This document shows positions 2 through 45,996 of a DNA stretch of 64,000 nucleotides, one piece after another. The translations under genes were made by a program, and so were the position numbers. Position 1 is the first letter of the stretch; every line of letters starts with the position of its first letter. Location of the stretch: IMG/VR virus record IMGVR_UViG_3300035208_002115; one strand, 5' to 3'. A model generated the notes under the pieces. The model ran no database searches and was not told where the DNA came from. It saw nothing but the letters and a program-made list of their open reading frames with translations. This stretch comes from a virus. Taxonomy: Duplodnaviria > Caudoviricetes.

Positions 2-148
2 CAATCATTGGTTTTTAAATCGGAATGGATTCATGAAGATTTATTACATATTTTACGAGAAGAAGAACGCCAAAGAAAAAGGAAAGAACGTCAAGAAAAA
101 TTAAAAAATATATTTGATGATGAAAACGATGGTATTTGGGACGTTTGA
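2..148 (+). CDS. 5'-truncated small ORF ending in the RxxKLxxIF tag (...RQEKLKNIFDDENDGIWDV)
   Basis: Hand translation of frame 2: open from the window edge to TGA at 146-148. Not in the ORF track. Confidence 0.7.
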   Translation, partial: QSLVFKSEWIHEDLLHILREEERQRKRKERQEKLKNIFDDENDGIWDV

Positions 149-302
149 TTTAGTGTCATCACCATCACATAGTAATAGTAGAATATATCCGAAAGATGTG
201 TTTTTGAAGCATATAGAAGAATTAAATAGGCGCATTAATAGAGAGCAACGTAAAGAAAAAATTATTCAAATATTTGGCGATGAATTATTCGAAGGATGTT
301 AA
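114..302 (+). CDS. Tagged mini-protein with prohead-protease-like motifs (FDLVSSPS, NSRIYP)
   Basis: ORF track; ends RKEKIIQIFGDE; overlaps both neighbours. Confidence 0.7.
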   Translation: MMMKTMVFGTFDLVSSPSHSNSRIYPKDVFLKHIEELNRRINREQRKEKIIQIFGDELFEGC

Positions 303-450: not shown

Positions 451-601
451 AAGTAAAATCGAGTTGTTAATGGACTTGCAGCGATACTGTGGTTTCGAGG
501 TGAATTTTATATTAAATCAACTTGGGTTAGTTTCACCAGAAGAAAAACGCTTTGAACGTAAAGAAAAACTTAAAGAAATATTTGGAAATGATTTTCAATA
601 A
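437..601 (+). CDS. Tagged mini-protein (54 aa) with gp23-like IELLMDL segment; ends RKEKLKEIFGNDFQ
   Basis: Hand translation ATG437-TAA601. Confidence 0.7.
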   Translation: MNLNESKIELLMDLQRYCGFEVNFILNQLGLVSPEEKRFERKEKLKEIFGNDFQ

Positions 602-788
602 AAAGGAATATGTTACAAGAGAGGAATACGAAAATTTATATGAACGACTTGAACAATGTATATCATATTCTGAACATCTTGCAAAAGCAATTAATGTGTT
701 ATATAAATCATTTGAAAGTATATTACCGCCAGAAAGACTTAAAATATTAAGAAAATCAAAAATAGAAGAAATATTTGATGCCGAATAG
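588..788 (+). CDS. Tagged mini-protein carrying one scaffold-like repeat (ISYSEHLAKAI); ends RKSKIEEIFDAE
   Basis: ORF 552..788; ATG at 588 preferred over the TTG. Confidence 0.7.
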   Translation: MIFNKKEYVTREEYENLYERLEQCISYSEHLAKAINVLYKSFESILPPERLKILRKSKIEEIFDAE

Positions 789-1032
789 TGGAATAACAAT
801 ATGGGGCAATAACACACTCACTCAAATAAGTGATTTATCGGATTATGGTTGTAATATGGAAACATATTTGACTGATATATTGACTGAAGAATTATCAAAA
901 GAAATTGATAAACAAATTATTGAAACCCTGATGAACGACCCCATATGGAAAGAAGAACGAGCAAGGATAATATTACGAGAAGAAAGAAATAAAAAAATTC
1001 AAGAAATCTTTGGTGATGATTTTACTGTGTAA
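775..1032 (+). CDS. Tagged mini-protein carrying a major-capsid-like segment; ends RNKKIQEIFGDDFTV
   Basis: TQISDL...LTDILTEELSKEIDKQII aligns by eye to this phage's MCP segment TQIEDI...LESVLINELTQTISKQIV. Confidence 0.75.
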   Translation: MMPNSGITIWGNNTLTQISDLSDYGCNMETYLTDILTEELSKEIDKQIIETLMNDPIWKEERARIILREERNKKIQEIFGDDFTV

Positions 1033-1036
1033 TTTT

Positions 1037-1504
1037 TTATTTAAATTTGTTAAATAATTTCTTAATAAGTGGTAAGTCATACCATTTTTCAACACCGTTT
1101 GGTGCTTCAGCATCATAATGTTTTCCGTTATAATATATCCACACATGATTTATCTCATCATTAACTTTATTAATATTAACTGGTGGATAACCCCAGTAAT
1201 CGAGCATGTTTTTACCCCAAATCCCATATTCGGTTTCAATAATATTATCCCAATTTTCTTTAGCGAATTCGGGGTCTCTATAATTAAAAAACATATCACC
1301 ACTTAATTCGAAAAGTGTTTTTGTATAACCACCCATTTTATTGATAATTTCACCTGCGAAATCATCACACATTCCATTATTTATATCCCAATTTGTACAA
1401 CTATTTTCTTCTCGGTATTCTTTAGATGTTTGTTTTATAAGTTTGGTTATATCAGGTGAAACATTTTCATTTAAAAAATCATTGAAATTGGTTTTAATAA
1501 ACAT
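1037..1504 (-). CDS. Hypothetical protein, possibly a papain-like Cys-His-Asp fold, with a capsid-targeting-like N-terminus
   Basis: INNGMCDDFA...HVWIYYNGKHYDAE; N-terminus KTNFNDFLNE; AATATATA upstream. Confidence 0.6.
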   Translation of the reverse strand: MFIKTNFNDFLNENVSPDITKLIKQTSKEYREENSCTNWDINNGMCDDFAGEIINKMGGYTKTLFELSGDMFFNYRDPEFAKENWDNIIETEYGIWGKNMLDYWGYPPVNINKVNDEINHVWIYYNGKHYDAEAPNGVEKWYDLPLIKKLFNKFK

Positions 1505-1551
1505 ATCTCTTAAATATTTTTTATTATATATTAAAATTTTGAAATTATAAT

Positions 1552-1559
1552 TAACTTTG
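1552..1559 (+). promoter_or_regulatory. Bacteroidota-type -7 promoter element TAACTTTG
   Basis: Matches TAnnTTTG just upstream of ORF 1564. Confidence 0.5.
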
Positions 1560-1563
1560 TAAT

Positions 1564-1758
1564 ATGAATATATTAGAGCAACAATCTTTAGGTCGTGTAA
1601 TAAGAACCCAGAAAAAAATAATAATTAATAGTGTATATGGTGGTTCATCTATGAAATACCCAGTATCTATTACAATGGTGTTTCCACGCAAAAGCTATAC
1701 GAGAAAACTAAAATTAGAAAAAATATTTCCAGAGTTTAAAAATGAAAAACACAAATAG
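1564..1758 (+). CDS. Tagged mini-protein with helicase motif VI-like (QSLGRVIR) and PolB motif B-like (KIIINSVYG) segments
   Basis: ORF track; ends RKLKLEKIFPEF. Confidence 0.7.
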   Translation: MNILEQQSLGRVIRTQKKIIINSVYGGSSMKYPVSITMVFPRKSYTRKLKLEKIFPEFKNEKHK

Positions 1759-1891: not shown

Positions 1892-1922
1892 AAAAAGGAG
1901 AACAAATGTTCTCCTTTTTCTT
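1891..1922. terminator. Bidirectional intrinsic terminator between convergent genes
   Basis: aaaaaaggagaaca-aa-tgttctcctttttc hairpin with A/T tails downstream of the MCP. Confidence 0.8.
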
Positions 1923-3653: not shown

Positions 3654-6059
3654 CTATTTCAAGTTTTTAAACACTGAGATGTATCGGTTGACAGCATCTT
3701 CAGTCAATTTCTCGTTATCCACGAACTTTACGTTTTCGTTCATGACTTTTTTTTCATTTACACTAACTAACCTTTCTATTCCTCTACTATTCCAGAAACT
3801 TTCGAATTTTGCATCTGAGTTCAGATTGTAAAGTTTAGACTGTGCGATAATGCTATTTTGTGTTTTAGCATCCAATTGTTCCCAAACAGGTTTTAAATCG
3901 CTTGGTATTTTTTCAACTAATACTTCTGCAAAAGATTTTTTGCTTTCAGTAAGTGCATCACGAATAATTCTTAAAACATCAGCTTCAGAAGTGTATTTGC
4001 TTTCGTTCATAGCAACTTTTATTTTTTCCTTATCTTCTGATGAAAGAGCTATCCAATCAGCTTTTCTTGCTTCACTCAAAAACAATAAAAAGTGAGGCTG
4101 TTCTTCTTCTGAAGCTTTACGTTTTTTACTTTCAGAAATTAGACTTTTAATATTATTTAATAAATCCTCTTGGTCTTTAATTACTTTATCACCAATGAAT
4201 TTTACTCTTGATTCTTGTACTTCTTGTACTTCTTCAACGTCATCCATTTTTACAACTACGATACCGTTTTGGACATTTGTGGCAATAACTTCACCAGTTT
4301 TGTCGTCATCGACTTTAACTATCATACCCGGTAATATCATACCTGCTACGTTTTCACCATCTTGAACCTGTGTTTGTGCTTGTGGGTCTTGAACCTGTGT
4401 TTGTGCTTGTGGTTCTTGAACCTGTGGTTCTTCCTGAGTCTGTACATCAGTTTCAGTGTCAGTTGTAATGTTAAGTTGTCCAGCATCACCAGTAGCATCA
4501 GCAGCAGCATCACCAGCAACCAAAGGCTGTTCTGTAATACCATCTTCTACTTGTACGGGTTCTTCGCTTGTTTCATCTTCATAATAAGAATCAACGTTGT
4601 CAACTTTCATATTACCCATTCTCTGTTCAGGTGAATCAACATTTTCGTTTATTTTTCCACCTTTAATTTGTTCAGAAATATATTTTTGATATTCAATATT
4701 TTTATCTAAAGATTCAGCAATATAATTTGTGTATGCCTGAGTATCAGTTAAATTTTCAGCAATATATTCAGCATATGCAATTGAATTATCAAGATGTTCA
4801 GCTACGTATTCGCTATAACGAATAGAGTTATCAACGTTTTCAGCAAGATATTCTGAGTATGCGATTGAGTTATCAACGTTTTCAGCAAGATATTCTGAGT
4901 ATGCGATTGAGTTATCAACGTTTTCAGCAAGATATTCTGAATATTCAATATTTTTATCAAGATTTTCAGCAAGATATTCTGAATATACAATAGCATTGTC
5001 AAGGTTTTCACCTAAATAATCAGCAAATTGAATGGTTTTATCAACATGTTCAGCAATATATTCTGAGAAATCAATACTATTACTCAATGTTTCAGCTATA
5101 TACTGGCTATAATTAATACTATCATCTAACTTTTCAGCTAAGTATTTAGAATAATCAATAGATTTGTTAAGATTTTCAGCTAAATAATCATTATGTTTAA
5201 CAAGATTATCAGTTGTAGTTTTTAACGTTTTGTTTTCGTTTACAAGAATTTGAATATTTTCAGCTAAATAATCTAAATAACTTGCCACTTTTGTGAAAGA
5301 TGAATTTAGATTAGCATAATACTCAGATAATTCTTCAACTTTTTCGGGAGATTCCTTACCTTCTTTGATGGTTTTTTCAAGTTCTTCTTTTATTTTACTC
5401 ATTTCCCCAGTTAAATAGGTAGAGTATTCTTCCATCTGTGTTTTTGTTACAGCATCATTATTGTTCATAGTAAATAATTCATTTATTTTTGTTTCATCGT
5501 CAACGGGAAAAATTCTAAAATTTGCATTTTCATTTGTATACCCTAACGATTCATTTAAAGACATTTTTGCAGAAGCAAATCCCGGGTCAGCAACGGCATC
5601 ATAAGTAAAAAGTTTTTTAATTGTAACTTCACCATTAGATTCGGTCACACCTGCTGCACGAGATGATACAAAAAGAGGGCATTCATCCTCGACTAAAGCT
5701 CTGGCTTCTTTACCCCATTGTGTGGTCAATAATCTTATTGAACCTTCTATAATATTTTTTTCTTGATTAAATGTAGCACTCTCAACTGTGTGTGAGACTC
5801 TGCGTAAAGACGTATCGAAAACATCAGGATGGTCGAATTCACCATATATAACTCCTAATTGTTTTTTTCTTGCCAATAATTCATTAAGATGTGGTAGAAA
5901 TTTGTCTGCGGTATAGATTCTTTCATTACGATTTTTTATATTAAATTCAGTAAATGTTCCAGATAATATAAATTTTTTAGTTGAAAGCGAAGCTTGTTCG
6001 TTAATCATTAATCCACTATTACAATGTTCCACAATCAAAATAGGTTTGAGTTTTTCCAT
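3654..6059 (-). CDS. gp21: Prohead core protease (gp21-like) fused to a repeat-rich scaffold domain
   Basis: NRNERIY, GEFDHP, VSH, VSSRAAG, YDAVADPG motifs, followed by 14-aa helical repeats and an acidic/Q-rich linker. Confidence 0.9.
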   Translation of the reverse strand: MEKLKPILIVEHCNSGLMINEQASLSTKKFILSGTFTEFNIKNRNERIYTADKFLPHLNELLARKKQLGVIYGEFDHPDVFDTSLRRVSHTVESATFNQEKNIIEGSIRLLTTQWGKEARALVEDECPLFVSSRAAGVTESNGEVTIKKLFTYDAVADPGFASAKMSLNESLGYTNENANFRIFPVDDETKINELFTMNNNDAVTKTQMEEYSTYLTGEMSKIKEELEKTIKEGKESPEKVEELSEYYANLNSSFTKVASYLDYLAENIQILVNENKTLKTTTDNLVKHNDYLAENLNKSIDYSKYLAEKLDDSINYSQYIAETLSNSIDFSEYIAEHVDKTIQFADYLGENLDNAIVYSEYLAENLDKNIEYSEYLAENVDNSIAYSEYLAENVDNSIAYSEYLAENVDNSIRYSEYVAEHLDNSIAYAEYIAENLTDTQAYTNYIAESLDKNIEYQKYISEQIKGGKINENVDSPEQRMGNMKVDNVDSYYEDETSEEPVQVEDGITEQPLVAGDAAADATGDAGQLNITTDTETDVQTQEEPQVQEPQAQTQVQDPQAQTQVQDGENVAGMILPGMIVKVDDDKTGEVIATNVQNGIVVVKMDDVEEVQEVQESRVKFIGDKVIKDQEDLLNNIKSLISESKKRKASEEEQPHFLLFLSEARKADWIALSSEDKEKIKVAMNESKYTSEADVLRIIRDALTESKKSFAEVLVEKIPSDLKPVWEQLDAKTQNSIIAQSKLYNLNSDAKFESFWNSRGIERLVSVNEKKVMNENVKFVDNEKLTEDAVNRYISVFKNLK
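4690..5200 (-). repeat. Coding tandem repeat, 42-bp/14-aa unit (IAYSEYLAENVDNS), about 12 copies of which about 3 are near-identical
   Basis: gagttatcaacgttttcagcaagatattctga recurs with a 42-nt period at about 4824-4940. Confidence 0.9.
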
Positions 6060-6669: not shown

Positions 6670-8457
6670 TTAGAATTGAGCTTCACCACCGCCTTGGGCT
6701 GCTCCACCACCTTGGGCTGCTCCACCACCAGTTTCACCACCACCTTGGGCTGCTCCACCACCAGTTTCACCACCACCTAATTCAGTCTGTGCGCCAGCAG
6801 CTTGTGAACCAAATTCACCACCACCGCCAGCTCCACCACCTAAATCAGCTCCACTTGTAACACCCATATCACTTCCACCACCTGCTCCACCTGCTCCACC
6901 TTCACCAGCAGGGGCAGATTTACCAGCTATAATAGGCATATATTTATACTTATTATTTTCTTGTATATCTTTTTCACTCAACATCATAATATTTCTGGCT
7001 AACCATTCTGGGTGAAAATATGAATTACCTTCTATATCTGTAAAATTTGATGTTAATGTTGAAACTATTTCAGCACGTTTAGCTAAATTGTTTAACCGTT
7101 TCCATTCTTCAAATAATTCGTCTTTATTAAAATTTAATTTCAAAGAAGAATTAAATACATTATCATTTTCCAATTCTGGAAAATCTAATATCATTTGAAT
7201 TTTAATCGGTTTAATTAATAATTCTTTAAAAACGGTTCTCGAACGATTAACATAATTTTTAAATTTAATTTCTTCTCTTGTTATATCAGATGCATCGGCA
7301 GAATAAATACTTCCACCACCAGATTCTGAATCAAATCTTGATAATGGTAATCTTGATGACCTTTTAAGGTTATTAGAAAACCATTGTAAAACAACATCTT
7401 CATTCAAGTTAACACCATCTGGTGATGTGACCTCAACTGTTGGTGATGTTCCCTCAGATGAAGGAAACCAGAAATCTTTTGAGTGAGGAATATTAGCACT
7501 ACCATTAATTTTAACTGTACCAAGTCTATCATCCCACTGAACATCTTCATGGTATTCACTCATCAACTGAAATATTTGTTGTTCAGCTTGCGCTCTGGTT
7601 AAACCATCAGTAGGTATAATAAATTTTTTATAAATAGCTGCTTGGTTAATATTATATAAAAGTTTTGTTTGTTCTAATAATTTTAGTTGATTATAAGGTC
7701 TAATTAAACTTTCAACATAAGAAGTTTCATTATAATCATTATTATTAGAATATGATATATAAATAATATTTGTATCTAATATAATTCTTCTTAATTGCGG
7801 ATTGTCTGGATTTTGTACCCAAACAATTGTCCCAGTAGTAGGTTCGGTTGCAACTACTATTGTGATAGGGTCAATTTTATTTAAAGAAATAATGTTTTTT
7901 TGTTTATTATCATAAACAACTTCAAACACTATATATCCATCAATAAGTAAATCCCTAAAATAGTTCCATGCCAATGCACCATCAGCGAATCCGAATAAAT
8001 GATAAAGTCTTTTAAAATTTTCATGTAATTTATCACGTATTTGAGATGAAAAATCATCTGGAAGGTCATTCATATATGCAAAAAAGTTGTCCGAATTGTA
8101 AATGATGGCTTCATCTGCCATTTGATTTAAAAAATCACGGATTTCTTCTTTAATAGAATATTGTCTTAATATTTTTCTTTTATCGAAATATGAACGGTCA
8201 AGATATGCTATTGATTTTTTTTCAAGCATTTTTGATATAATTCGCTTGGTGAATATATCATACATACCCGGCCCTTCAGTTACATTTCCTACATTTGAGG
8301 GGTCGCTTGGGTTTTCAGCAAAACCAATTAATTGAGTATTTCTAATAACTTGGTCTTGCCAGTTTTGTCCAAAACTGGATAATCGTCTTAATGTTCGATT
8401 AAAAAACCCACCTGAATAAATTCCATTATTTGCACCTGTATTATCGTAACCTGCCAC
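6670..8457 (-). CDS. gp20: Portal protein, T4 gp20-like, with a Gly-rich C-terminal tail
   Basis: FRDLLIDG, RPYNQLKLLE, DFWFP, RLPLSRF, ITREEIKF motifs; GTG start. Confidence 0.93.
   Translation of the reverse strand: MAGYDNTGANNGIYSGGFFNRTLRRLSSFGQNWQDQVIRNTQLIGFAENPSDPSNVGNVTEGPGMYDIFTKRIISKMLEKKSIAYLDRSYFDKRKILRQYSIKEEIRDFLNQMADEAIIYNSDNFFAYMNDLPDDFSSQIRDKLHENFKRLYHLFGFADGALAWNYFRDLLIDGYIVFEVVYDNKQKNIISLNKIDPITIVVATEPTTGTIVWVQNPDNPQLRRIILDTNIIYISYSNNNDYNETSYVESLIRPYNQLKLLEQTKLLYNINQAAIYKKFIIPTDGLTRAQAEQQIFQLMSEYHEDVQWDDRLGTVKINGSANIPHSKDFWFPSSEGTSPTVEVTSPDGVNLNEDVVLQWFSNNLKRSSRLPLSRFDSESGGGSIYSADASDITREEIKFKNYVNRSRTVFKELLIKPIKIQMILDFPELENDNVFNSSLKLNFNKDELFEEWKRLNNLAKRAEIVSTLTSNFTDIEGNSYFHPEWLARNIMMLSEKDIQENNKYKYMPIIAGKSAPAGEGGAGGAGGGSDMGVTSGADLGGGAGGGGEFGSQAAGAQTELGGGETGGGAAQGGGETGGGAAQGGGAAQGGGEAQF
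6685..6910 (-). repeat. Gly-rich coding repeats (GGETGGGAAQ / GGAG) in the portal tail
   Basis: ccaccaccttgggctgctccaccaccagtttca units; local GC spike. Confidence 0.85.
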
Positions 8458-8462
8458 GTTTA

Positions 8463-8798
8463 TTATTGACTATTTTTTAAAGAATTAATTGGAAACCAAT
8501 ATTCTTTTTTAAAAGGTATTTTTATATTACCGTTTATTATCAATTCTTTAGAAGTATTTTTAATATCATTCACATTGATTACTTCATATGTAAATGGTAA
8601 ATTTGCATCACCATTTATTTTAACTTCACCAAGACTATCATCCCATTGAACATCTTCATGATATTTTCTCATCAACTCATGAACTTGTTCTTTAGCTTCT
8701 TCTCTGGTTATACCATCAACTGGTATAATGAATTTTTTATGATTAAATTCAGTATGTTTTTTTTTAAATCTTTTATCAATAAAACTAAATAATCCCAT
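8463..8798 (-). CDS. Stand-alone partial portal duplicate
   Basis: KKFIIPVDGITREEA...YHEDVQWDDSLGEVKINGDANLP...EYWFP versus portal KKFIIPTDGLTRAQA...YHEDVQWDDRLGTVKINGSANIP...DFWFP. Confidence 0.85.
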   Translation of the reverse strand: MGLFSFIDKRFKKKHTEFNHKKFIIPVDGITREEAKEQVHELMRKYHEDVQWDDSLGEVKINGDANLPFTYEVINVNDIKNTSKELIINGNIKIPFKKEYWFPINSLKNSQ

Positions 8799-8916
8799 TT
8801 TTATGATATTTTATTTTATCTATATATAAAAATATTAAGTCTTTGTTTATTTTTTAGTTCCAATACTTATAAATTAAGAATATAAGGCTTGGGTCTTATA
8901 ATATTAGATTATTAGA

Positions 8917-9636
8917 TTATTTACTTATATTTTCAGATAATTTGTAATTTTTCTCAAATGCTTTTAATTTTTTATAAAATGCTTTTGTATCTTCATCATA
9001 TTCTAATTTTATATTATCATATTCAGTTATTATATCTTTTAATTTCGTTTTAAATCCTTCAGAATCGGTCTTTTCGACAAGTTCTTTCATTAATGCTGAA
9101 TTAACGTAACGAGTATTCAGAAATATAAATCTATCCATGATATTCGTGGATATTATATTTACTTCTTCTATTTTTAGAACATCAAATGCAGTCACGGAGA
9201 ATTCAAACCCACCATTCTTTTTTAAAGCTTTGTAAATATTTTCGAATGTTATACCTTTTAGAGGCATCTCACTTGATACATCAGATATATCAATATTTTT
9301 ATCAATAATAGATTGATATAAATAAAATAATTGACCAAAGAATTCTATTTTATACTCATATGGTAAATAATCCAGATTTATACAATAAAGAATGTTTTTA
9401 TTTTTCCACACTTTATATTCTAATGGTAATATCGGACAAAATATTTTATTACCATTAAAATTATATAATATAAGATAGAAATGACCTATGGATAGATTTT
9501 TTAAAGAAATAGTTTTAAATTCATTATTTTGATGTTTTCTTAAATAAAAAATTCGTTCAGTAGATTCAAGTGTAATAGCAGTTAAATTATATGAATACTG
9601 ATTAAAAATATTATAACCTTGTTCTTTTAGATTCAT
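8917..9636 (-). CDS. Probable DNA end protector, T4 gp2-like
   Basis: GHFYLILY...CINLDYLP resembles gp2 GxNLHYLP; adjacent to gp4. Confidence 0.55.
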   Translation of the reverse strand: MNLKEQGYNIFNQYSYNLTAITLESTERIFYLRKHQNNEFKTISLKNLSIGHFYLILYNFNGNKIFCPILPLEYKVWKNKNILYCINLDYLPYEYKIEFFGQLFYLYQSIIDKNIDISDVSSEMPLKGITFENIYKALKKNGGFEFSVTAFDVLKIEEVNIISTNIMDRFIFLNTRYVNSALMKELVEKTDSEGFKTKLKDIITEYDNIKLEYDEDTKAFYKKLKAFEKNYKLSENISK

Positions 9637-10130
9637 TTCAATATTTTAGCTTTTTCAAGATGTTTTTCAGTTATAATCACAAATTGTAAACCTCTTTTAG
9701 CACACCATTCTACTGCTTGACTCCATTTCAATTTATTTTTTATATAGGTCTTTAATGAGTACTCAAAATTTTGTAGAGATTTTATAGATTCTTTCATTGG
9801 TTTTTGTGGCGGTTGAGTTTCTTTATATGGTTTTAGTTCAACTACCACTTTATCTATCTTTTCAGGGTCTGATTTGTTTACACATTCATAATAAAAATCT
9901 GGATAATAACGATGAAAATTACCAAGTGTATCTTGATATGTTATTGTAATTCCTTCTGAGTTCCACTTAGTAACATTTTCGTTTAAATCCAGAAATGAAC
10001 AGAATTTCATTTCCCACGAAGAACGAAATGCAATTCTTGTTGGGTCACCCATATACTTTTCTGGATTAATTAATTTGTAATATCCTTGGTGATATTTTTG
10101 AGACTGATTTGGTTTAGAAATATTACCCAC
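9633..10130 (-). CDS. gp4: Head completion nuclease, T4 gp4-like (TnsA-type endonuclease)
   Basis: NPEKYMGD, RSSWE, WNSE, RYYPDF, ELKP, NKLKW, FVIITE motifs. Confidence 0.9.
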   Translation of the reverse strand: MGNISKPNQSQKYHQGYYKLINPEKYMGDPTRIAFRSSWEMKFCSFLDLNENVTKWNSEGITITYQDTLGNFHRYYPDFYYECVNKSDPEKIDKVVVELKPYKETQPPQKPMKESIKSLQNFEYSLKTYIKNKLKWSQAVEWCAKRGLQFVIITEKHLEKAKILK

Positions 10131-10139
10131 ATATAAATT

Positions 10140-11030
10140 TTATTTTTTAATCATATGTTGACAAACAATGTTTATCCATTTATTTTTAACACATGTATTA
10201 TAAGCACTGACACATCCGTGTTCAAAACTATGCTTACTATTATATTTTAGTGCTTCTTCTTTGCATTTTTCAAATGTCCAATAACCTCTCGGTTTTTTAA
10301 TGCTTTGCAAGTCTTTGGTTAGTTCTTTATACCACCCATGTCTCGTTGACGAACGGTATGCACCACTATATTTTTTTCTAAATTCATTTTTAGTTTTACA
10401 ATTTATTATAACTTTTTTACAGTTATCATATGTCCACATTAAATTTGAACCACCAAGACCACCTGTTTTAGTTTTATTTAATATATTAAACCCATGTAAT
10501 TTAAAAATATTTAACCAAAATTCTTCTAATTTTTGCGATTCTTTGTATGATATATATCCAGTTAATTTTATAAAAGATGGTATTAACCCACTTTTAACAA
10601 TATATTTATTAACCAAACTTTTTTCAGTTTCTAAATGTTGTTTTTTTCTTTTAATAAAATTATATGTCAATCCAATGTACACACTACCATCAGAAAAATA
10701 TACCATATATATTAAACGATTAAATCTATCTCCTGACACTTCCATGTGTTTACATACATCATCAATCCAATTATTTTCTAAGCATTTCATATAAGCTGAA
10801 GTTGACTTTTTAGAAAATTCTCCTTTAGTATTATATTTTAATGCTTCTTTTTTACAATTTTCATATGTCCATATAACAATATGACCATTTGAACGGGACA
10901 TATGTTTACAAATATCATCTAACCATTTATTTTTACGGGAAGTTTCATAGACTTTATTATGATTTTTTCTAAAATCACTTCTTCTATTATATTTAGATGC
11001 AACTTTCTCACAATAATAGTAATCTAACAT
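10140..11030 (-). CDS. GIY-YIG homing endonuclease with repeated helical DNA-binding units
   Basis: LIY...VYIGLT...RKKQH core flanked by four CKxxALKY...F...AY...W repeats. Confidence 0.8.
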   Translation of the reverse strand: MLDYYYCEKVASKYNRRSDFRKNHNKVYETSRKNKWLDDICKHMSRSNGHIVIWTYENCKKEALKYNTKGEFSKKSTSAYMKCLENNWIDDVCKHMEVSGDRFNRLIYMVYFSDGSVYIGLTYNFIKRKKQHLETEKSLVNKYIVKSGLIPSFIKLTGYISYKESQKLEEFWLNIFKLHGFNILNKTKTGGLGGSNLMWTYDNCKKVIINCKTKNEFRKKYSGAYRSSTRHGWYKELTKDLQSIKKPRGYWTFEKCKEEALKYNSKHSFEHGCVSAYNTCVKNKWINIVCQHMIKK

Positions 11031-11091
11031 TATAATAATTGTTATTTTTATAATATTATATATTTATAAAATGATTACTAAAAATATTTAC

Positions 11092-11316
11092 TTAAACAGG
11101 ATTTAATATTTTTTCGTATTTATTATTAAAAAATCTAATAATACGTTTTTTTCCCATAACAATATTACTAACTACTTCGTTCTTAAATTCAACATACACT
11201 ACCAATTTGTCTTGGATATAACACGATTGAATTTTAGAAAGGTTCTTATCACTCTGGATACACTCGATTAGATGATTTTGATTACGTTCTTTTAATAAAT
11301 CAATTACAGTTGTCAT
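11092..11316 (-). CDS. Hypothetical protein
   Basis: ORF track; AATATATA upstream. Confidence 0.55.
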   Translation of the reverse strand: MTTVIDLLKERNQNHLIECIQSDKNLSKIQSCYIQDKLVVYVEFKNEVVSNIVMGKKRIIRFFNNKYEKILNPV

Positions 11317-44404: not shown

Positions 44405-45391
44405 TTATTCATCACAAATATCTTTTAATTTTTCTTTTCGTAAATTTAAAAATAAATTATGAATAACTTTTTTTTCCTGAGTAGTTAAATATTCATTTTG
44501 TCTATTTGGGGATTCGTAATTACCAGTAGAAGTAAAATATAAAAGATTATATATGGAACAAATTGCTCCTTTATAACCTTTTATTAAAAATTTATACTGC
44601 ATCAAACCACCCATCTTCACTCTCTGATATTCATATGGCATAGTTATTTTAATTTTCTTATTTCTTATTTTATTTGTTGTGGTATATTGTTTTAAAACTT
44701 TAATTATGTGGCTGACAAAATCCCCCATATCCATATGAAATGCACTATTACAACAATCTCGACAATATTCAGCAATGAATTTCTCGGTTTTATTATTAAA
44801 TTTACGATTTATTTTAGCCGTATAATAATGCATACCCTTAAAGTATTTATCATCTAAATTCATTCCCAAAAATTTCATTAAGTTTTTTAAATCGTTGAGT
44901 TGAAATGCTGTGAAGTGTTCGTTGTTTTATTAAATTGTAAAACTCATTAACTTTATCATCACCAACAATTTCTAATTCATAAATTGGTATCTCAGTATGA
45001 ACACTGATAATATAATATCTTTCAAATTTCTCTTGTAATGTCATCACTTAAAATGTCTTTAAGTTTTTCCTTTCGTTCTCTTATTTTTTTCTTTTTAGAA
45101 TATTCTTTAGAGATTTCAAGGAATCTATTAATATCATCTACTTCAGTATCAATATAGTTATTCAGATGTTTCGAATTCATCACCAAATATTTCTTTAAGT
45201 TTGTCTTTTCGATGTCCAACTTTTATTTTTCGTTTTGTTTCCTCACTAAATGGTTTCATGGACATTGGATATAACGATTCGAAATCCATTTTCATGATAA
45301 TCGATTTATATACTTTATCTGGCGGTGGTAAAAGTCTTATTTGACCACCTTTATAATTTTTTGGGTCGAAAAATGCTTTCTTCTTTTTCAT
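44405..45391 (-). CDS. Array of four overlapping tagged ORFs (45158, 45022, 44850, 44405); 45158 carries PolB motif A-like DFESLYP
   Basis: End RKDKLKEIFGDEF, RKEKLKDILSDD, RFKKLNEIFGNEF, RKEKLKDICDE. Confidence 0.75.
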
Positions 45392-45921
45392 TAAATAAAA
45401 GTTTTTAACCCTTTCTTAATCATTTGAACGAATGCTTCGGCACTACCTTTCGCATCATCAATTGGGTGGTGTGTGTGACGGGTTTTTCTCAAATATTTAA
45501 ATCCTTTGAAATATCTCATATTACCAATCATACCTTGGTATACATTATTCAAATTTGTAGAAGTGTGTCCAAATGGATTTTCATTACAATATTCCCAGAA
45601 ATACCAATCCATCCACTGGAAATCAAAACCATTATTATCAGATAAGAAAAGTGGTCTATCACCTAAGTTTGTTTCTTTAATCCAAGTATAACATTTATCC
45701 ATAGTTTTTTGGGGGTCTGGAAATTTAAGGTGTTCTTCTCTGGTGAATCCAGATACTTTTAAAGATTCTGGTATCCACAACTCAGATATAGGTGCAGTCT
45801 GCCCATAAAAAATTTTATCCAGTTTAAATTCTTTATCTACAAAAACGATACCGAAACATACCATTGAGTGTTTTCCAACTTGGCGACCGTCTGTTTCAAC
45901 GTCAATAACAAAATAACTCAT
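45391..45921 (-). CDS. DEDDh 3'-5' exonuclease (RNase AS/oligoribonuclease-like)
   Basis: IDVETDG, NGFD, HHPIDDA; start at MSYF because TATATTTG lies at 45949-45956. Confidence 0.85.
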   Translation of the reverse strand: MSYFVIDVETDGRQVGKHSMVCFGIVFVDKEFKLDKIFYGQTAPISELWIPESLKVSGFTREEHLKFPDPQKTMDKCYTWIKETNLGDRPLFLSDNNGFDFQWMDWYFWEYCNENPFGHTSTNLNNVYQGMIGNMRYFKGFKYLRKTRHTHHPIDDAKGSAEAFVQMIKKGLKTFI

Positions 45922-45996
45922 GAAAATAAAATTATAATTTTTGTAAAGCAAATATAAATAAAAAGGGGGAGTTTTTAGCTCCCCAGTTATTCTTTT

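Follow-up and report, generated by a model that had tools for sequence, protein, structure and literature searches.

A tagged phage mini-protein joining look-alikes of helicase motif VI and polymerase motif B in one predicted helix: a possible mimic of replication enzymes

In the case of phage T4, the Gol peptide, a short conserved stretch of the essential phage protein gp23, is read as a peptide by a host defence, the Lit protease. Eukaryotic microProteins, e.g. LITTLE NINJA (definition in PMC7584889), and the dominant-negative protein fragments made in the laboratory (PMC9245647) are small, resemble a piece of a larger protein, and act, or are proposed to act, by occupying its partners and not by catalysis. 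These two are the nearest published concepts to the locus analyzed here. Literature searches returned no description of tagged fragment mini-proteins or of such a design, and in a catalogue that lists 268 anti-defence proteins of phages the word "decoy" has another sense only (10.1101/2025.06.06.658234). As to the neighbourhood of the locus, gene 43 of Aeromonas phages 25 and 44RR is split into 43A and 43B (PMC2988022), family B polymerase (PolB) being two polypeptides there, with homing endonuclease genes at the break.

The mini-gene studied here lies in the window, a stretch of 64,000 nucleotides that covers bases 541,370-605,369 of a single 675,678-bp genome with 27% G+C. Among the products of the window are a major capsid protein and a portal, both of T4 type, and a head protease of S80 type that is fused to a scaffold. 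Among deposited phages, DNA matches were obtained with LR756501 and LR756503 only, both of them 735-kb uncultured-phage records. Unlike microProteins and dominant-negative fragments, the product of the mini-gene offers a motif-bearing helix only, combines look-alikes from two unrelated enzymes with a shared tag, and belongs to a phage array. Gol triggers defence and belongs to the complete capsid protein, whereas in the present case a separate tagged mini-protein is concerned. PolB of this phage is likewise made as two polypeptides, again with homing endonuclease genes at the break; however, in contrast to 43A and 43B, some 120 kb lie between its halves, the N-terminal one (PolB-N) being followed by an array of tagged mini-genes, and the likeness to the Aeromonas phages is one of neighbourhood, not of the mini-protein. 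The features discussed are collected in Table 1.

Table 1. Features of the mini-gene locus, its array and its relatives (positions are those of the window unless another genome or contig is named)
Feature	Position	Strand	Remarks
Mini-protein gene	1564..1758	+	64 aa; ATG 1564, stop codon TAG 1758 (ORF listing)
Conserved box TTAACTTTGTAAT plus ATG	1551..1566	+	candidate promoter or leaderless start region
Predicted helix, residues 3-25	1570..1638	+	both look-alikes in register; AlphaFold2
SF2/UvsW helicase motif VI look-alike	1582..1605	+	Q7-R14, within stretch Q6-R14; pattern scan
PolB motif B look-alike	1615..1641	+	K18-G26, within stretch K17-G27; pattern scan
Shared C-terminal tag, F-P-E-F-K tail variant	1702..1740	+	R47-F55; R-x-x-K-[IL]-x-x-[IL]-F
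Next tagged mini-gene, 49 aa	1742..1891	+	ATG inside tag tail; homologue L041:752-919
Two-way terminator hairpin	1892..1919	.	closes array against convergent capsid gene
Head-protease N-terminus tagged mini-gene	114..302	+	BLASTP vs 801-aa protease-scaffold, E = 4e-4; PHROG 207, E = 0.037
Capsid-fragment tagged mini-gene	775..1032	+	PHROG 138 major head protein, E = 9e-5, residues 18-54
PolB motif A tagged mini-gene (D-F-E-S-L-Y-P)	45158..45391	-	PF00136, E = 5.4e-5, 22.6 bits (cut-off 23), residues 10-43
PolB-N	genome 539,510-540,991	+	ends just left of window
PolB-C	genome 659,109-660,569	-	own motif B K-L-V-I-N-G-T-Y-G and motif C
Mini-gene orthologue, 65 aa	L006:7344-7541		640-kb IMG/VR genome; also on 1-kb metagenome contig
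Mini-gene orthologue P0003, 75 aa	L041/L042		two short JGI contigs
Large homing-endonuclease-like genes	L006:5351-6235, 7556-8437, 8464-10056, 10136-11311; L007:7500-8405; G000 538,139-539,479 (-)

The ATG of the mini-gene follows the upstream stop by three codons only, and the product is made up of Q-x-x-G-R-x-x-R (Q7-R14), K-x-x-x-N-S-x-Y-G (K18-G26) and the C-terminal tag. Both patterns were scanned for in a six-frame translation of the whole 675,678-bp genome (745,377 residues). Q..GR..R occurred three times, in the mini-protein ORF and in two genuine helicases, and K...NS.YG occurred twice, in the mini-protein ORF and in one 70-aa junk frame. The probability of finding both in one 64-aa ORF, which the sequence-only reading had proposed to estimate, came to ~4e-9 per ORF when calculated from amino-acid composition. 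This value alone is not decisive, because many windows and many hallmark motifs were scanned; since a chance pair is possible in a large scan, conservation in homologues was used to settle whether the combination is real.

Three variants of the mini-protein were found in the libraries searched, all in very close relatives with the same gene order. A word-based search of 5.8 billion proteins returned these three and nothing else; the one homologue gained from an exhaustive HMM search, which covered 1.84 billion representatives, was P0003. In IMG/VR, protein-based scans led to the L006 genome alone; DNA-pattern scans gave chance matches only, as did a metagenome scan apart from one copy identical to that of L006. 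Outside these phages, the libraries searched, the 1.84 billion representatives included, yielded neither a natural protein nor a contig with the composite of both look-alikes. The mini-gene is absent from L007, a fourth close relative, and from relatives with 57-69% PolB-N identity, though their PolB is split in the same way. In all three genomes the order runs from the end of PolB-N through tagged mini-genes and a capsid-fragment mini-gene to the studied mini-gene; the capsid-fragment mini-gene is its immediate upstream neighbour in L006 and L041, and in two of the three a homing endonuclease gene lies downstream on the other strand.

A three-way alignment of the body showed M1, E5, Q7, G10, R11, R14 and N22-S23-V24-Y25-G26 to be invariant. 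Eight of the nine motif-defining positions are among them (hypergeometric P = 8e-4), a statistic that rests on few sequences, namely three close homologues. The exception is the Lys of motif B: the window's copy and L006 have it four residues ahead of the Asn, P0003 has it five residues ahead. This shift by one residue indicates that the polymerase signature is imitated rather than strictly kept. The linker of 15-20 residues could not be aligned among the three homologues, and indels are confined to it and in frame. When the window was compared with L006, dS was 0.99 and dN 0.23 over the first 27 codons of the mini-gene (dN/dS about 0.23), the tag gave dS 1.1 and dN 0.28, and PolB-N dS 1.13 and dN 0.047. 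Synonymous sites between these genomes are thus near saturation (dS about 1), yet frame and motifs have been kept, both of which a neutral relic would have lost at this divergence. The mini-gene is under purifying selection that focuses on the motif residues. The sequence-only reading had described a 64-aa ORF joining motif VI, PolB motif B and the tag, and had pointed to the homologues as the place to look for free variation. The ORF listing, the pattern scan and the three homologues confirm this description; no free variation was seen, and the look-alikes are the best-conserved residues.

AlphaFold2, run on a two-sequence alignment, predicted the first helix with block-mean pLDDT 88-90 over residues 1-20, followed by a low-confidence linker (residues 26-42) and a second helix (43-54) that corresponds to the tag. 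Q7, G10, R11, R14, K18, N22 and Y25 fall on one face of the first helix on a helical wheel (resultant 0.81, P = 5e-4 against random positions), and the four-residue spacing from R14 to K18 places the two look-alikes in register. In contrast, S23, V24 and G26 lie off this conserved stripe, yet are invariant. In the model, the one-face pattern would fit an imitation of those enzyme helices that face nucleotides, and equally a basic stripe that binds on its own account. A look-up in the ESM Atlas returned helical look-alikes only.

The likeness to the two enzymes extends to signature residues, spacing and neighbouring residues of SF2 motif VI (T4 UvsW, PDB 2OCA) and PolB motif B (T4 gp43, PDB 9e5y). 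The motif B region reads K-I-I-I-N-S-V-Y-G-G in the mini-protein and I-A-L-N-S-V-Y-G-A-I-G in P0003, as compared with K-I-L-I-N-S-L-Y-G-A-L-G in T4 gp43; the N-S-V-Y-G-A-I-G of P0003 thus resembles N-S-L-Y-G-A-L-G of gp43. The motif VI region is Q-S-L-G-R-V-I-R in the mini-protein and Q-S-I-G-R-G-I-R in P0003, the latter matching the Q-S-I-G-R-G-L-R of the phage's own UvsW-like helicase at 7/8 residues. UvsW had earlier been quoted with QSIGRVLR, which needs correction: T4 UvsW has Q-T-I-G-R-V-L-R in PDB 2OCA, and QSIGRGLR is the form of the phage's own helicase. Unlike UvsW and gp43, the mini-protein has no surrounding helicase or polymerase domain, and its two motifs stand 4 residues apart in one helix.

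At the level of profiles, the Pfam search of the 64-aa mini-protein gave no family at E <= 1, and searches of PHROG and of PDB sequences with the mini-protein or its alignment gave nothing meaningful. Helicase_C (PF00271) detected only a 521-aa helicase in the genome, not the mini-protein, and the four genome matches of PF00136 did not include it either. As regards SF2 helicases, the motif VI signature is present and the profile of RecA-like domain 2 is undetected, the signature alone being insufficient for membership; as regards family B polymerases, the palm/fingers profile with motifs A, B and C is undetected. At 64 aa, with a predicted single helix, a disordered linker and a tag helix and with no Pfam match, the product cannot be an enzyme, as had been claimed at the outset. 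The mini-gene is a real gene under selection, and its product is non-enzymatic. At the nucleotide level the body resembles neither the helicase gene nor the PolB genes of the phage; a recent copy of these genes was therefore rejected, and so was a DNA-level decoy for homing endonucleases. Neither profile nor DNA similarity was found in support of a copying of the motifs from helicase and polymerase.

The tag is common to well over a hundred proteins of this phage: its regular expression matched the last 24 residues of 188 ORFs, as against about 54 expected. At the DNA level, the mini-gene tag agrees in 27/28 nt with that of a capsid-fragment mini-gene (genome 223,695-223,722), and the tail variant F-P-E-F-K-N-E is common to the mini-gene and the capsid-fragment mini-genes at about 223.5-224.4 kb. 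Read in another frame, the F-P-E-F-K tail holds the start codon of the gene that follows (A-A-A-A-A-T-G-A-A-A-A; window 1738..1758, G000 223,715-223,735 and 224,185-224,205), so that part of the tail is constrained by translational coupling.

Bodies of sibling mini-genes carry pieces of phage proteins (Table 1). When 150 tagged bodies were compared with the phage's 233 large ORFs by BLAST, only the capsid piece rose above a reversed-sequence null. BLAST without composition correction inflates E for K/E-rich peptides, 3% of shuffles reaching 0.005; therefore profile-supported cases alone were relied on, and a scaffold match of the ORF at 552..788 was discounted for this reason. By this test the siblings with capsid and PolB motif A pieces are profile-supported, and the likeness of the studied mini-protein is at motif level only. 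The homologue of the head-protease mini-gene in L007 keeps a G-R-I-Y-P-K core. A six-frame scan of the genome located D-x-x-S-L-Y-P (PolB motif A) in the genuine PolB and, apart from it, in one tagged mini-gene other than the one studied. The orthologue of the latter in the closest complete genome (L023:1396-1590) has the motif A piece exactly deleted with both flanks and the tag kept; therefore not every such piece is kept. The 77-aa mini-gene of the window carries a 33-residue motif A piece closer to canonical PolBs than to the phage's own, and directly upstream of it lies an RNase T / DnaQ-type exonuclease gene (45391..45951, minus strand; PF00929, E = 1.9e-8). Together, these two genes may be what is left of a second polymerase locus. 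In a relative with 69% identity, the first gene after PolB-N is a tagged mini-gene with two tandem copies of the capsid-fragment motif (L008:7484-7768).

The gene is thus shown to be real, with selection on its motif residues, a predicted helix, a shared tag and a place in an array; from this we infer a mimicry, its target and the role of the tag: the mini-protein would be a non-enzymatic molecular mimic of replication-enzyme surfaces within a tagged-fragment array, to which we assign a probability of roughly 40%. The helix of ~23 residues would hold both look-alikes, with Q7, R11, R14, K18, N22 and Y25 forming a continuous polar, basic face, and a variable, disordered linker would join it to the tag helix shared in the clade. 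The helix might then offer a conserved replication-enzyme surface to a recognising factor (a host sensor, an inhibitor, or a partner of the enzymes), which may thereby be titrated or diverted, while the tag would dock the mini-protein onto a common hub. Several points count for mimicry, namely the rarity of the patterns, the 8/9 conservation, dN below dS, the one-face helix and the extended likeness, as well as the siblings with capsid and PolB motif A pieces, the conserved capsid-fragment neighbour, and the tag DNA common to a distant capsid-fragment mini-gene, as of a tag module. Against it count the lack of a profile link, the Lys shift in P0003, the small number of homologues (three only), the absence of a known partner, and the loss of the PolB motif A piece of another mini-gene in a close relative. 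In the real enzymes, moreover, both motifs line buried nucleotide pockets, an unlikely surface for a sensor.

A further point against mimicry is that both enzyme motifs are basic patterns of a helical face, on which a basic amphipathic helix could converge. The mini-protein may thus be a stand-alone helix of this kind with a job of its own, binding nucleic acid, nucleotides, polyphosphate or an acidic partner, and its enzyme likeness may be convergent or coincidental, because the helix and both motifs are alike ladders of Q, R, K, N and Y spaced i, i+3/4, i+7. The single basic stripe formed by the conserved side chains, the missing profile match to either enzyme family, the slipped Lys of P0003 and the rarity of the composite among natural proteins all agree with this. 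However, N-S-V-Y-G is invariant including its off-stripe residues, the motif VI of P0003 comes within one residue of the phage's own helicase, and sibling mini-genes carry pieces of phage proteins; we therefore hold the stand-alone helix to be rather unlikely.

It is improbable, in our view, that the mini-protein acts as a microProtein-type regulator of the split polymerase. In such a scheme its helix would copy fingers helix P, in which motif B sits, dock on helix N at the end of PolB-N and compete with PolB-C, the arginines being additions on the triphosphate-facing side. PolB is split inside the fingers here and in all seven relatives found, and in each of the three genomes PolB-N is followed, some 2 kb downstream and without a change of strand, by the mini-gene; the known reassembly of split PolBs (PMC2988022; PMC3061061) also counts for such a regulator. 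Against this, similarity to helix P of the phage's own PolB-C is not significant (E = 0.038 for one pair; 0.36), capsid and protease pieces stand in the same array, so that adjacency to PolB-N may be incidental, and more distant relatives with the same split have no mini-gene. Co-folding of the mini-protein with PolB-N (alignments A2, A3), carried out as one job, reached a score of 0.28, the mark being 0.32, and counts neither for nor against this reading. That the mini-gene makes up for a motif B missing from the split PolB was rejected, as PolB-C has its own motif B together with motif C (Table 1). PolB-C also has a hydrophobic C-terminal tip, F-F-S-S-I-F-D-F, that resembles T4-type clamp-binding tails. 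A gp45-type sliding clamp was considered as the tag partner and rejected, for the genome contains no PF09116 match.

Finally, it is most improbable that the mini-gene is functionless, being either debris or an ORF arisen by chance to which recombination has added a mobile tag module, for although its fast-changing, homing-endonuclease-rich region differs between close relatives, L007 lacks the gene, tag DNA is common to distant mini-genes and another mini-gene lost its PolB motif A piece in a relative, the mini-gene has retained its frame, start and length as well as the motif residues at near-saturated synonymous sites with dN/dS well below 1, indels are in-frame and limited to the linker, and no DNA similarity to any donor gene was found. 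The four readings leave a remainder of the probability that is assigned to none of them.

The mimicry reading can be widened, although we regard the wider form as somewhat doubtful: giant phages might encode a library of tagged peptide mimics, each showing the most conserved stretch of an essential phage protein, among which the mini-protein would show two stretches from two replication enzymes, stitched together in one helix. A common tail would plug all of them into one hub, e.g. a virion-packaging or sequestration machine, and the library would blind, bait or poison its readers, be they immune sensors of the host or enzymes that belong to competing phages. Should the mimicry be real, the mini-protein would be a natural, selected counterpart of the laboratory dominant-negative fragments and a new class of phage counter-measure or interference factor, and its composite helix would point at replication-enzyme surfaces being read in infected cells. 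Even without a mechanism, the locus shows that in giant phages a stretch of no more than 23 residues, made up of two enzyme signatures, can come under strong selection, and the mini-protein is a small, readily synthesised object for pull-down and infection assays.

The sequence-only reading had also credited the mini-gene with its own promoter, and this claim stands in part. The box TAACTTTG is present at 1552-1559, only 4 nt before the ATG. The sequence directly before the ATG, T-T-A-A-C-T-T-T-G-T-A-A-T, is unique within the window and differs by one base in L006; the box is thus kept in two of the three genomes. In L041, however, it is absent and the start of the mini-gene overlaps the stop of the upstream mini-gene. 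TAnnTTTG, the Bacteroidota promoter word, peaks genome-wide 17-25 nt before ATGs, not at 4 nt. This peak suggests that the host of the phage belongs to the Bacteroidota. A 155-aa gene whose function is uncharacterised (1037..1504, minus strand) splits the mini-gene array and is not at this position in L006 or L041. As this opposite-strand gene separates the mini-gene from the rest of the array, a separate start signal for the mini-gene is plausible.

Homing-endonuclease-like genes crowd the interval from PolB-N to the capsid gene, with GIY-YIG-like members, Vsr/DUF559-like ends and repeated K-Y-G-x-x-N-P modules; even genomes with 92% identity in PolB-N have them in different numbers and at different places. 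Farther along the window, the 801-aa protein encoded at 3654..6059 (minus strand) combines an S80-type head protease N-terminus with a long scaffold-like region, in which about a dozen repeats of the Y-S-E-Y-L-A-E-N type and an acidic Q/E/T-rich stretch can be recognized.
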